DNA of 63,722 nt, filler included, from Collodictyon triciliatum (taxonomy: Eukaryota): assembly GCA_043381765.1 (NCBI GenBank). It is 32 parts of 32 records of this genome, joined end to end, with 100 filler letters (N's around TTAATTAATTAA, not from the genome) between each part and the next. Parts side by side here need not be neighbours in the genome. Positions count along the whole stretch, not along the records: positions 17,503 to 19,345 come from JBHJMP010010083.1; 31 more parts are not named here. One strand, written 5' to 3'. Every line of letters begins with the position of its first letter. The stretch's first letter is position 1. Below, piece after piece: positions 17,403-63,722 of the stretch. A model generated the notes under the pieces. The model saw only the letters and a list, made by a program, of their open reading frames with translations. It made no database searches and was not told the origin of the DNA. The position numbers and the translations under genes are program-made.

Positions 17403-17529
17403 NNNNNNNNNNNNNNNNNNNNNNNNNNNNNNNNNNNNNNNNNNNNTTAATTAATTAANNNNNNNNNNNNNNNNNNNNNNNNNNNNNNNNNNNNNNNNNN
17501 NNCTTTTCTATCTCCCACACATCACCACC

Positions 17530-17824
17530 TACTTTGGAACTACTTGCCTGATGGCTGAATGAAAGATTGTTGAGACGGGCTCAACAGCTAAGACTTTTAG
17601 AATAAAAAAAAAATGTAGCCTGTCACCCGATTGTTTGTGCAGCAGACACTTCTATATCTGGCATATTCCGACAAAGGCAAGTTACTGCACAAACAAGGAT
17701 AACTTTCAAAGAATAGAGAATAGTAAGGTAATAATTCGTCAAAATTACTCCTTTGGAATTTTAAAAGTCTAAGGGCCGAAGCTGTAAAAGGTGGCATGGG
17801 TGTTTGTGGGCGAGGGCTGTCCAT
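17530..17824 (-). CDS. 5' exons of an unidentified host gene
   Basis: ATG-initiated MDSPRPQTPMPPFTASALRLLKFQRSNFDELLPYYSLFFESYPCLCSNLPLSEYARYRSVCCTNNR followed by a short intron-like T-rich stretch ending in AG. Confidence 0.45.
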
Positions 17825-18252
17825 CTGGCACTCTGTTCCCCCGCAAAACAAAACAACCAGCGGCTCCAGCAGACTCTGGCAGTCATAAGAAGACAAATAT
17901 TGTGCTCATTATTGTGTGCGTCGATACCTCCTCTTGTAAAAATACTCTAAACGAACTAGAGATTAATCTGGCCGTACCGGTAAGCCTCGTCTGATGCAGA
18001 TTCTCGGGTATCCTATTAAAACGCGCCCGTATTCTTACTTTCTTTGACCGAAAGCAACGACAGATGCAAATGTATCTGAGGACATGTGCCAACACACAAT
18101 CAATCAATCAATCAATCAATCATTCAAAAAAATATCAATAAATAACCAGAGTCACTCGTCGTCAAATCGCCACTAATAATTTCATTCCAGTTGAGCATGC
18201 ACTGTCATTCGCGCTTATTATTTGCCTTTTGATTGGCTATACCCAAACTTGA

Positions 18253-18608
18253 AATCGAACCAAAACAAAAAGTGAACAATCGCTTATGGATCGAATTGAA
18301 AAGACATTGGCAAGGATCTTGTACTGGTGTATGGAGACTGGAGCAGAAAATCTCAGATGAAACATTTTATGCCAACAATCGGAAGAGGGTTACGAAAAAT
18401 ACTATCCAACCGTTTTGAACCAGTTAGTGTAGATGGATTTAGAACCTCTAAGATGTGCCGCAACTGCGAAAAAGAACTGGAATATATGGCACCGAAAGGG
18501 AAAACAAAAAAAAAGGTGTATAGATGTCTCATATGTAAATAATTCAATCGCTCAGAAAGCAAACAAAGTGTATTCTTGACAAGGGACTTTAACAGCGCCA
18601 ATAAATAA
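18253..18608 (+). pseudogene. Fanzor1 (eukaryotic TnpB-family RNA-guided nuclease), C-terminal RuvC/zinc-finger remnant
   Basis: After repairing a 1-nt frameshift near 18307 it reads KSEQSLMDRIEKT(F)GKDLVLVYGDWSRKSQMKHFMPTIGRGLRKILSNRFEPVSVDGFRTSKMCRNCEKELEY...KVYRCLICK*FNRSESKQSVFLTRDFNSAINN. The GDWS, VD(E>G)FRTSKxCxxC, second Cys pair and RDxNxAxN (RuvC-III) motifs have Fanzor1 spacing. Confidence 0.88.
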
Positions 18609-18668
18609 TATACTCAACAAAGTTCTTTTAATCCTTCAAAATATGCCTACACCTTCCTTTAAAAAACA

Positions 18669-18828
18669 GGCTGTTGGGTCTTTCCTAGCAGCCATCACCA
18701 CTACACAACCTCTGTGAAAAAAAGTGGTGAGACCTTGGATACTAGTGCACCAAGTTTATCAATCGAAAGATGGTATACTCCTTCTAGTAAAATAAAAGCG
18801 AGCGATGTAAAATTTATTTCGTATGCTT
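18669..18828 (+). ncRNA. Candidate Fanzor omegaRNA (fRNA) scaffold
   Basis: Five adjacent hairpins starting about 60 nt downstream of the RuvC-III motif: 18669-18693, 18695-18730, 18734-18754, 18757-18775 (GAAA tetraloop) and 18796-18828. Confidence 0.55.
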
Positions 18829-18899
18829 CTGACTCAACACTTGATTCGTTGGAGGCGATTCGAGGCGTTTGTGTGGACGTGGTTTTTGAAACAAACAAA

Positions 18900-18970
<71 letters not shown>

Positions 18971-19033
18971 AGCATTAAAAATAGATAAAAACAACTGACT
19001 CTGCCCTCGTAAACGACCGATCGGCAAAGGGGA

Positions 19034-19213
19034 ATGCGACGCACTCCTGTCTCTTTGCGAGCAGGTTCTCCAGCTCGGCCGGCTTCCCAGTCTGACTCTG
19101 TCACGTATTACCAGCGCCATCTGGAGTCGGTTACGCAAATGGAGGAAAGGCTTAGTTCAGTTGCACGCAGGCACGAGAACAGAACAAAAGAAACACGCGA
19201 CTATGGACCCAAA
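19034..19213 (+). CDS. First exon of an unidentified host gene
   Basis: MRRTPVSLRAGSPARPASQSDSVTYYQRHLESVTQMEERLSSVARRHENRTKETRDYGPK followed by GT and a (TATTC/TATTT)n intron-like tract. Confidence 0.5.
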
Positions 19214-19479
19214 GTATCTAATTTCACATCTCTTCTATTTTATTCTATTCTATTCTATTTTATTCTATTTTATTCTATTTTATTCTATTTTATTCTATTT
19301 TATTCTATTTTATTCTATTTTATTCTATTTTATTCTATTTTATTCNNNNNNNNNNNNNNNNNNNNNNNNNNNNNNNNNNNNNNNNNNNNTTAATTAATTA
19401 ANNNNNNNNNNNNNNNNNNNNNNNNNNNNNNNNNNNNNNNNNNNNGGAGAAAGTAACACGACTGCAAGGATGCCTTTCC

Positions 19480-34980: not shown

Positions 34981-37595
34981 ACTTTGTTGCTTCTCTCTTC
35001 ACGGAAGCCAATCTGTCTGCCATCTTTGCCAGAACGTTCAATCCTGAGGTACTGTCGTTCTTATTCTCCAATAATTTGAAACATCTCTCCTAAATTGGTC
35101 GTAAATTTCATAATTCTGAAGCGAGAGCTGAATAACCTTCATTGAATCCATAAAGGATTCATCTGCTTCGCGATACGGAGTGAACATCTTGAACGAATTT
35201 ATCAACGTCTTTGCTGGAAATCAACTCTCTATCCAACCAAATCCTTTCTCCGTGTACGCTGCTGTCTTCAAACATCACGCACCAAACGTCTCGTCATTCT
35301 TGGCCCGTGACTCTGTATGGCATCATCCATTCACATATAACTTCTTAACCCCCTTTTCAAAAAGGACTTATTTCCTTGGTTCCCCGGAGAACTATCTGCC
35401 ATCAGGGCATACATTATGATCTAATAATTTTCATGCGGTGTAAATAACCATCATTCCATCTGAAGACACAAGAGATTGGATTCACATTTGGTCGCATCAG
35501 CCCACTTGGAACCAGTCGTATTATCCTTGCCGAATTAATTCTGAAGACTATCCGGTCCTTTCCCAATGACCTTCAAACAACTTTTGTAGAACAAGGCTTG
35601 GTTAAATCTCTTATCGTAAGTCCTTTTAATTTTCATTTTCATTTCATTCTGTTGCAGGAAAAAGAAGTCATACATACTCACACATCTGGATTGCCTGATT
35701 TGATTACAGGAACTTTTCTTCAAATTCCCATTCAACAGCCTTCTCCATGGTATTGTATATGAAGTTGTCCTTGTTATCGTGAAAGGAGGATTAACTGAGT
35801 TTTATCCCCAGGTATGCGGGGCTATATTTATGCCACTTTTATCCTGCACACCTCAAATCAGACTGAATGGGTAACCTTGCTTGCATTTTAATTTACTTTT
35901 ATTCATAGCTGTTCACGGAATCCGGCCTCATCAGGAAAACAATTGAAGTTTACCCTGAGACTCACATACAGTAGGCCTTCTACACTTTTTGATATGTAGC
36001 GAACACCGACTATAGTTCAGAAACTTAAATGGTGTATTATACGATTATATTTATATATGTGTGATTAATTTAATTTACCATTTTTAAGCGAAATCGGTGC
36101 ATCATCCCACCGTCCTGGATATTGCGGTTTCCTCACCAAAATTTCTAATTTGATTGAAGAATCAAAAGGTTCACTGCAAGCATACCTGGGTGAGTAAGAA
36201 CATTTATTGTTTTATGCATTCCATATATTCTGCAGGGTTGAGTGGTCTCATTCCTATGTTGTCCTATTTAAAGAAATAGGTTGGATTGGTGTTTGATTTC
36301 TTTTTCTTTTTTGTAAGACTCTGAGTGGGATGTGTTTGTCTCCACCAAGCTTCAGAAGCAAAACAATGTGGAAAAACCGCCTTCCCATGACGAGTCGGTA
36401 AGTGAAAAAAAAAAACCCTCCTGATGTATATGTTTAATAATTATGCCCCAGAGCGAATATATTACCATTGCATACTTTTGAATCGAATAAAGGGGGGGGG
36501 NNNNNNNNNNNNNNNNNNNNNNNNNNNNNNNNNNNNNNNNNNNNNNNNNNNNNNNNNNNNNNNNNNNNNNNNNNNNNNNNNNNNNNNNNNNNNNNNNNNN
36601 NNNNNNNNNNNNNNNNNNNNNNNNNNNNNNNNNNNNNNNNNNNNNNNNNNNNNNNNNNNNNNNNNNNNNNNNNNNNNNNNNNNNNNNNNNNNNNNNNNNN
36701 NNNNTTTATGCAAAATCTAAATGCCCTCTATTTTTTTTTTTTTTTTAGTGATAAAGGTACAATTCCAGAAATACCCAAAGCTCTGCATCATAAATCACGT
36801 ATCCGATTGCCGCACAAACTTTAGTTTATATGTCTTTTTCAGACACTTTCATCGGATTCTAGTCTGTTTCATTTACTCATCACATCACATTTTAATTTAA
36901 TTCATTTTCAACCTAACTCATACCCCAAACGGAAACTGACCACAGACGACCTGGATGAAGAGTCTGCTCAGTAATACCATTGTCTTCTTTTCCTTTTTTT
37001 CTTAAAAATACAGAAAATGAAGTATACACTGAAAGAAATAAACGACAGCAAGCCGATTCAATAGAATCATCATATCCTATTGCTGTTTTCTTTGAATCGA
37101 ATAAAGGAAAAAAAATCCTATTGCTGTTTTTTTTTTTTTTTTTTAAAGAACCAGCAGTTTTGTTGCTTGGACATATTCATCTTTTATACATGTAAATACA
37201 GACTTTATCACTCATCCACAAACTCGATTCACAGAGAAGGACTCCCCGAAGGAGACGAAATGGCGATTGGGACGGAAGACACCGAAGACCCCTTCGACTA
37301 CGAAGGTGAAGGCGGAGAAGAGCACCAGAGCCAACCTGCAGCCACCCGCTTCGAAGAAACAGATGAGAATGAGGACGAAGCTGTCAACACAGAGGAGCCA
37401 ATGCTCTCACAAGAACAACAGCAGGCACCTACCGAGGAAGCCGTTAACTCTGCCTCTGCTGAGGCGACAGAGTCCGCAGAGAGCAGCAGTGAAGCAGTCA
37501 GCTCCGAGGCCATGGCAGAAGACACCCAACCAGAACAGCAGCCGCAGCCGCAACAACCGGAGTCTTTGGAGGAGGCCGCAGCGTCGTCCTCGTAA
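34981..37595 (+). CDS. SAPS-domain protein (PP6/Sit4 phosphatase regulatory subunit), 3' exons, spanning the 204-N gap
   Basis: Exons FTFGRISPLGTSRIILAELI, ELFFKFPFNSLLHGIVYEVV, LFTESGLIRK and RPGYCGFLTKISNLI match SAPS motifs (PLGxxR, LFFxYxxNxxLH, RxGYxGxLTxI). An acidic tail follows after the gap. Confidence 0.88.
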
Positions 37596-61786: not shown

Positions 61787-61888
61787 ATNNNNNNNNNNNN
61801 NNNNNNNNNNNNNNNNNNNNNNNNNNNNNNNNTTAATTAATTAANNNNNNNNNNNNNNNNNNNNNNNNNNNNNNNNNNNNNNNNNNNN

Positions 61889-63714
61889 ACAACTATCACA
61901 AATCGCTTTCGACTCCCAATTACGCTCTCGTCGAATGTAAATTCCGATTCTTTCATGCTGTGCTGTTGTACCTCAAGAGGAACCGTAATAGATTGACTTG
62001 GACGTCTCATTCTATTTCTAATTTCTACAGAAGAAAGCTCCTGGTGGGATGAAACAAAACTTCCAGTCCCCCAGTCGTTCATCACAAAAGCACCGTTAGA
62101 GTCTTCTCTAAAAGAGGATGAGAATCTTCTATGACCCATTTCTGAGGGCACAAAACTACCCCGCCTACTCGAACTTGGTCGAAAAGACATATTGTATGCA
62201 AGAAAATTGTTTGATGGACTCTGCAACATACCATCTGATACATATCGAATCTGCCCTTGACCACCATCATACTTAAGATTGACAGTTGATGCCCTTCTCG
62301 ATGCAGCGATTGATGCTCTTCTGGACATCGCTAATGAGGGTTTCCTAGATATTGATATCGATGCTGATGTCCTTCGAGATGAGGCCGGTGAAGGGGTTTC
62401 ATGAGATGTCGCTTGCTCATCAGGATTTTCTTTCGAGCTGCTTAATCCAGATGCATTATTCTCAAGTGCCTTATTATTCGCATTAGTTGCCATAGCCACG
62501 TCTGTACCATCCTCGTCATTCACCTCATTTATATTGCAATCAAAACTGATGTTAGTATTTCGTCGCATATTTATCACTGGACTCTGCTTTGGTGACCCGG
62601 CCTGCTCTTCTGACTCTAAAAAGTCATAGAAATCTCTACTGTTCCTCGCTTCGAATTCATATTCTGAGCTTTCATCATATTCTCTCCCACCCGAGTCGCC
62701 TATAAGTAAACGCCTTTGCACAGTAGGATCCACAGAGAATCTGCGTAAATCGATATTTCCATCTGTTTTCATGTATCGTTCCCAGCTTCTTGTTAATGGG
62801 ATGCGCAAAAGGTGTCTTTGAATACAATGAACCTTGAGAGGAGATAATATGGACATGATGAGCCTGCGAAGGCTGAACATAAATACATTTATACAACAAG
62901 AACGACAGACAATGTCTGAAGTGACAAGAACTTGAAAAAACCGTAAGCTTCGAACTCTGAGATTTGGTATTAATTTGAGCTGTACTGCGAAATACAAAAT
63001 GATGGGAGCTGCAATTGCAAATAATAGACTAAAGAAAATGTTGAAGCTATACAGATGAAGCGCTTTTGCCTGTAAAACAAATTTCTTGAGAGGGTTGGAC
63101 TTGAACTGACGATGATAAACAATCATCTGATAGAACCTTTTGCAGTTATGTAAGCAAGTCAGTAGCATTTGTTGCCCATAGATTGCGTTTTGATTTCCGT
63201 TCATTTGCCTAGCTGATGGGAGGGCTGGTCCAAGACCAGGGCCATGTAGAACATATTCGGATTGGACTCGAGGAATTAAGAGTGGCACCATTTTCGGTCT
63301 AGCGTCTGGTGATAAAAATGATGTTTTTGAAGTATGAAACTTACTTTCATTCGAAATATTTTGGTGGTTTACACCAGCACTAGCCGACTGCTGCCGGTGG
63401 CCTGTAATTTTGTCTGTACTTCCAACACGACTTTCAACGGGATCTTCTCTGCTAGCGCGATTTTTTTGCATTCTTTCCACTCTATCGCTGCGGGAAAACC
63501 CCAAATCACAAATACTAGCAAAAAACTGCTTCGTCTTGTTTTTCGTAACAGGTCCTCTTTCTGTTGAGCTGTTTGCATTAGGAGATCGTTGTCCAAATGT
63601 ATGCTGACGACCCCATAGCTTGTTTATCTTTTGATCAAACACAGAGAAACTCACAGGAAGAGCGTCCATGAACAAGACATTCACGTAACAGAGAGAGTAC
63701 AACGGAATCCCCAC
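61889..63714 (-). CDS. Long intronless ORF: membrane protein fragment with a Ser/Arg-rich cytoplasmic region, family unknown
   Basis: About 600 open codons with hydrophobic helices (FNIFFSLLFAIAAPIILYFAV) and repeated RRxS motifs (SRRAS, RRGS, RRFS). Confidence 0.65.
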
Positions 63715-63722
63715 TATGGAGA

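Follow-up and report, generated by a model that had tools for sequence, protein, structure and literature searches.

A probable inactive, 5'-truncated remnant of a Fanzor1-carrying DNA transposon in intergenic DNA of Collodictyon triciliatum

Knowledge of decayed Fanzor1 copies dates back to 2013, and members of the Fanzor family have since been shown to be RNA-guided nucleases. Mariner-Fanzor1 elements were described by Bao and Jurka (2013, PMC3627910), and section 8 of that paper reports that some Fanzor1 families are often 5'-truncated with intact 3' ends. The abstract of the same paper gives [TS][TS]-x-x-C4 zinc finger-x(5,50)-RD as the Fanzor1 motif. According to PMC10530073, the RuvC-II site of these proteins is rearranged: an inert Gly or Pro occupies the canonical position and an alternative conserved Glu lies downstream. 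This relocated Glu is essential in ApmFNuc, where the substitution E467A abolishes cleavage (PMC10530073).

We analysed a stretch of 63,722 nt (63.7 kb, hereafter the window) from C. triciliatum. The window has the character of eukaryotic DNA, with 37.5% G+C and many microsatellites, and encodes ubiquitin, an ABC transporter and DGAT (3 of the 14 ORFs scanned) as well as diacylglycerol kinase. These genes lie in exon-like pieces, which makes plausible the eukaryotic intergenic setting that an earlier note on this DNA had claimed for the locus studied here. Two unbroken ORFs of about 600 aa (46397-48172 and 61888-63720, both on the minus strand) have no Pfam match and may originate from mobile or viral DNA; the recognisable genes of this genome come in short exon-like pieces. 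Two 44-N blocks separated by 12 bases occur every ~1940 bases throughout the window, and one 204-N block occupies 36501-36704. They are masks, not natural sequence, and interrupt some ORFs.

Positions 18253-18789 very likely represent what is left of a DNA transposon carrying Fanzor1 in eukaryotic intergenic DNA, now inactive and truncated at the 5' end. Of the gene, the remnant retains only the latter half of the split RuvC domain together with the zinc ribbon and the C-terminal tail; ~70 nt of 3' non-coding end follow. Homology searches identify this broken fragment of ~540 bases on the plus strand, situated between two candidate host genes, as the 3' quarter of a gene for Fanzor1, a eukaryotic RNA-guided nuclease, to which it is related by common descent. 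It is colinear with residues ~495-643 of an intact relative of 648 aa (P0002), with 72% identity and a joint tblastn E of 5e-41 over two frames. Residues 513-609 of P0002 aligned with 18309-18602 (71/98 identical) and residues 609-643 with 18604-18708 in a different frame (19/35 identical). Another relative, P0003, matched the C-terminal tail at 18604-18720 with 17/25 identical residues. A profile built from ten relatives hit the fragment with E 1.3e-48 in the reading frame of 17503-19345, and gave a single significant domain, with E 1.8e-46, when the six frames of the whole window were searched.

The similarity extends to experimentally characterised Fanzor1 proteins. The read-through peptide of the fragment (P0001, with X at the stop) was used as a phmmer query against PDB sequences, and the top three of 11 matches at E <= 10 were all Fanzor1: Parasitella parasitica 9cf0 (2.4e-8), Spizellomyces punctatus 8gkh (0.034) and Guillardia theta 9cer (0.25). 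For P0002, the solved Fanzor1 proteins of Guillardia (2.1e-28), Parasitella (2.7e-24) and Spizellomyces (3.7e-23) were the sole matches at E <= 0.01, in the range of 1e-23 to 1e-28, and the alignments cover most of P0002 and most of the Fanzor portions of these chains. Pfam gave PF07282 below threshold in one of three peptides of the fragment (E 0.0089, 16.6 bits against a cut-off of 26.3) and weakly in two of six relatives, none of which reached the cut-off. The fragment is assigned to Fanzor1 because the PDB, relative and profile matches are strong, though Pfam alone is weak. Descent from Fanzor1 had been claimed before and is borne out by the profile, tblastn and Parasitella matches; the claimed motif order likewise agrees with the alignment with relatives and the PDB matches.

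Relatives are numerous. A search for longer proteins yielded six relatives among 40 candidates, the best being P0002 (72% identity over 95% of the query, E 7e-39), and intact 648-aa proteins at this identity occur in metagenome assemblies. A cluster look-up for seven relatives returned neither an organism nor an informative name. When 1.84 billion representatives were searched exhaustively, 543 matches were obtained at E <= 1e-3 and 88 at E <= 1e-10, many of them 590-700 aa long. Scanning metagenome contigs revealed relatives in at least 545 of 600 candidate stretches, from which we retained 80 loci. With the alignment as query, relatives were found encoded in 411 of 488 candidate stretches of the viral_contigs collection. 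On viral contigs, 31 of 80 kept loci lie, by our own count, on records tagged GVMAG (giant-virus metagenome-assembled genome). The alignment was required to detect them, as P0002 alone returned 36 stretches of that collection and no relative in them. The nearest Atlas clusters consist of 92-100% viruses, with Nucleocytoviricota the commonest phylum. The Pfam domain DUF8286 (PF26935) is precomputed on P0002, P0004 and P0005 and is carried by 74-95% of the members of these clusters. The flanks of five sampled loci are dense, low-G+C ORF arrays with ribonucleotide reductase small chain, HSP70, MutS domain V and XRN.

It is unlikely that the fragment stems from an endogenised giant virus, as a piece left after an element-bearing virus integrated and everything else was deleted. 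The mostly viral make-up of the wider family in the collections and of the nearest clusters, together with the neighbours just listed, would suit such an origin; however, no other virus-like sequence flanks the fragment, and the earlier note's candidate start codons of host genes lie on both sides of it, at 17824 on the minus strand (~430 bp upstream) and at 19034 on the plus strand (245 bp downstream). The relatives on giant-virus contigs are also just 38-47% identical to P0002, which by itself detected none of them, and the many variants seen in single-organism runs fit a repeat family of a cellular genome better. A transposon remnant in host intergenic DNA remains the preferred reading. The guess that the host or one of its viruses carries intact relatives holds in so far as there are intact 648-aa metagenome proteins, unbroken codons in four sequencing runs and distant giant-virus relatives; the accompanying suggestion of a new, uncharacterised family does not, as the fragment falls within Fanzor1 / Pfam DUF8286.

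In a quick tree computed from the last 190 residues of 95 rows, the window copy, P0002 and P0003 form one clade (SH-aLRT 100), with an end branch of 0.56 for the window copy versus 0.06-0.08 for P0002 and P0003. Among rows whose context is known, the DDE_3-linked loci L004 and L001 lie nearest; the deeper forks gave the trio no supported sister group. P0009 and P0078, two short proteins in the databases, result from gene calling over other family copies with frameshifts. They start with the wrong-frame string …QKEV.NCLWTES…, which the window too gives at 18233-18418, and then enter the Fanzor frame. The source of the fragment would be a multicopy family with less damaged members.

The layout of the fragment is given in Table 1. 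Its 5' truncation point lies at or just before 18253, at ~18235-18253. A TTTT stretch occupies 18227-18230, immediately before this zone. Local alignment of 18253-18306 scored weakly above shuffles, and loose ends of related contigs before 18307 give identical codons. Upstream of 18253, the local score of 42 was at chance level (shuffles 25.3 +/- 4.8, maximum 58). Elsewhere in the window, tblastn with six relatives gave nothing below E 0.4, and blastn detected no second copy, only microsatellite matches. Since no further profile or tblastn piece was found in the whole window, only the last quarter of the gene is present, and the single profile domain agrees with the earlier statement that the N-terminal portion is missing. 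The GxDPGK region, which holds the RuvC-I aspartate in the family and is present in the full-length relatives of the alignment, is absent from the whole window.

Table 1. Features of the Fanzor1 fragment and of complete relatives. Positions count along the window unless a locus is named.
Feature	Position	Strand	Details
First recognisable piece, frame 1	18253..18306	+	NRTKTKSEQSLMDRIEKT; about P0002 residues 495-511, by-eye comparison
ORF, 80 aa	18300-18542	+	Reads KDIGKDLVLVYGDWS...PTIGRGLRKIL...VDGFRTSKMCRNC...RCLICK; ends at TAA 18540-18542
Frameshift 1	18307-18308	+	TT where the family has TTT (one T lost); loose contig ends in X1, X3, X6
Core, frame 3	18309..18602	+	YGDWS, DGFRTS, zinc ribbon, RuvC-III RD; P0002 tblastn, profile, Parasitella match
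GGA (Gly) for the relocated catalytic Glu	18435-18437	+	Glu in 10/11 rows of alignment A1, the window being the exception
Zinc ribbon, C..NC / CLIC	18456-18467 / 18525-18536	+	Within core
Stop TAA instead of GAA, then TTC (Phe) instead of TGC (Cys)	18540-18545	+	Related contigs, relatives
In-frame continuation after TAA 18540	to stop 18606	+	Reads FNRSESKQSVFLTRDFNSANK; ends ...TRDFNSANK
RuvC-III RD	18582-18587	+	Within core
Frameshift 2, net +1	~18599-18609	+	Extra base(s) in AAT/AAA run; related contigs omit 1, 3 or 4 letters
Protein C-terminal tail, frame 1	18604..18720	+	NNILNKVLLILQNMPTPSFKKQAVG...; equals P0002 residues 609-643; TGA 18718-18720
3' non-coding tail of element to probable right end	18721..18789	+	Ends ...CTTCTAG then TA; contig likeness
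Complete elements, transposase + Fanzor1	L001:4637-7952, L002:174-3503, L003:4626-7950	opposite strands	On long, dense, low-G+C contigs

To compare the window with sister copies, we used contigs at least 85% alike from four public runs (X1, X2, X3 and X6), comprising two freshwater metagenomes and two coded organisms. Part of the window is contained in 12 of 16 sequencing runs, the best share being 0.14. The region 18307-18789 is covered by up to 14 distinct contigs per position in X3 and X6, mostly 85-99% alike, and by fewer in X1 and X2. Deep multi-contig cover in X3 and X6 was also seen at 17503-17626, where loose ends behind ~17613 begin with an A run; the cause may be a further repeat, or an abundant transcript whose 3' end lies here.

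The three lesions named in the earlier note, a 1-nt deletion near 18307, GGA in place of the catalytic Glu codon and the TAA at 18540, are all confirmed by the comparison. Loose ends of related contigs before 18307 read ...GAAAAGACAT, implying the missing T, and the reading frame of the window switches between 18253-18306 and 18309-18602. At 18436, related contigs have A (GAA, Glu) in most of the depth in all four runs; judged by these copies, the relocated Glu is lost in the window copy and retained by the family. YGDWS keeps the Gly at the canonical RuvC-II position, so that the rearranged site has Gly there and Gly again in place of the downstream Glu. At 18540 and 18544, all or nearly all of the depth of the related contigs has G (GAA, Glu, and TGC, Cys, respectively), and the relatives read CLICKEC or CLVCKGC here, with a conserved Cys just past the second Cys pair. 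The zinc finger-RD motif remains readable (the TS of FRTSK, C..NC, CLIC and RD) and is interrupted by the stop, next to which the conserved Cys has become Phe. The second frameshift coincides with the tblastn frame switch at 18602/18604. By this comparison, the three lesions noted before are private to the window copy, and two further ones are added, the Cys-to-Phe change at 18544 and frameshift 2.

Taken together, the frame contains one stop and two frameshifts, and ~495 residues are missing. As read from its sequence, the remnant cannot encode a nuclease, since it has no RuvC-I region, no catalytic Glu and a broken frame. That the copy is decayed, as had been claimed, is supported by the stop, the two frameshifts, the lost Glu and Cys, and the long end branch.

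The related contigs remain alike to 18788/18789, ~70 nt past the TGA at 18718, and then diverge from the window. The right end of the element is probably at 18788/18789, because the likeness among sister copies stops there. Two details of the earlier description required correction: the element had been ended at 18608, while the family likeness continues to ~18789, and the protein had been ended with ...NSAIN, where the in-frame reading is ...NSANK followed by a stop.

By analogy with its nearest relatives of known context, the original element was probably a cut-and-paste transposon with an IS630/Tc1-mariner-type transposase. In L001 and L003, a DDE_3 (IS630/Tc1-mariner-type) transposase gene lies directly upstream of Fanzor1 on the opposite strand (Pfam 1.3e-13 and 5.7e-15), and a DDE_3 transposase homologue accompanies 23 of the 80 metagenome loci. 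Inverted repeats of 32-38 nt bracket transposase and Fanzor1 in L001, L002 and L003, that is, in all three loci examined, forming a unit of ~3.3 kb. The right inverted repeat begins ~18 nt past the Fanzor stop in L001-type elements. A small hairpin (CGCCGA/TCGGCG) is found between the Fanzor stop and the right repeat of the complete elements L001-L003. The L001-type relatives are only 57-58% identical in this region, and the 3' tail of the window is, by eye, unlike their inverted repeats. Of the Tc1/mariner features (transposase, inverted repeats and TA duplication), which are seen in relatives L001-L003, the window has only a fitting TA at 18788-18789. The last 21 nt of the element have no inverted partner in the window at up to three mismatches, and a DDE query found no match in the six frames of the whole window. 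As for a target duplication, the longest shared word was 6 nt, equalled in 313 of 500 shuffles; other repeats around the element were at chance level only. The description of the locus as a non-autonomous copy finds no support, as the window yielded neither element ends nor a target duplication nor a second arm.

According to PMC10432273, the guide RNAs of Fanzor/TnpB are encoded at the transposon right end, the very part that is retained here, and by analogy a guide-RNA scaffold would be expected in 18721-18789. It is nevertheless highly unlikely that the remnant is a working non-coding module, either a guide-RNA scaffold acting in trans for intact copies or a promoter or leader of the downstream host gene. 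The element is directed towards the candidate ATG at 19034, and the predicted fold of 18560-18795 is slightly more stable than shuffled sequence (z = -2.46; 3 of 200 shuffles equally stable). A z of about -2.5 is weak, however; Rfam gave no match, the coding part has decayed freely in a way not suggestive of selection on the locus, and an (AAAT)n microsatellite intervenes between element and gene. It seems very doubtful, too, that the remnant owes its retention to a 3' end still giving rise to a guide-RNA scaffold, or to a promoter or leader into the flank, served in trans by active P0002-type copies. If true, this freshwater eukaryote would offer a parallel to the guide-only TnpB relics of bacteria.

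The microsatellite occupies ~18897-18970; the candidate start codon beyond it, 245 nt from the 3' end of the element, is on the element's strand. The sequence at 18805-18866 is uncovered by contigs of the compared runs. Chance similarity or an assembly chimera is extremely improbable: although none of these contigs spans the 3' junction at 18789 and the Pfam match alone is sub-threshold, E-values of 1e-41 to 1e-48 leave chance practically refuted, and a 151-nt contig of run X1, 100% identical over 18139-18289, spans the 5' junction, though contig and assembly may derive from one and the same sample.

The remnant of a Fanzor1-carrying transposon most likely arose in three steps. A Fanzor1-bearing DNA transposon of a multicopy family would have inserted; its 5' three quarters would have been lost, either at insertion or through later deletion; and the remaining piece would have decayed neutrally. 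By itself, the fragment is of little consequence, being an ordinary relic of a known family. It is a pointer to a compact (~650 aa) Fanzor1 lineage with intact metagenome members and many variants in single-organism runs, a lineage akin to the Fanzor1 elements of mariner type, which abound in giant viruses. Surveying the host genome could reveal whether this lineage shows activity and passes between virus and host.

Compared with the solved Fanzor1 proteins (9cf0, 8gkh and 9cer), the fragment has the C-terminal order of RuvC and zinc-ribbon motifs in common and differs in comprising the last quarter only, with a stop, two frameshifts, no catalytic Glu and no RuvC-I. Intact relatives of the fragment are ~620-660 aa long; the solved chains are MBP fusions. 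The relatives share the DUF8286 domain with Nucleocytoviricota proteins that are often annotated 'transposase', an assignment made via the relatives and not via the fragment. The architecture of the Mariner/Tc1-type Fanzor1 elements, as given for PGv-1 and its relatives in PMC3627910, is shared by L001-L004; the window's element has no transposase, inverted-repeat partner or duplicated TA, and ends ~70 nt past the stop, beside a TA. For CRe-1, 2 and 3 of Chlamydomonas reinhardtii (Helitron2-type), section 8 of PMC3627910 gives genes of 5-10 exons and target duplications of 7-19 bp, whereas the window fragment is colinear with an intron-free relative and has no such duplication. The fragment resembles these elements in its 5' truncation, most copies of them likewise having lost the 5' part and kept the 3' end.
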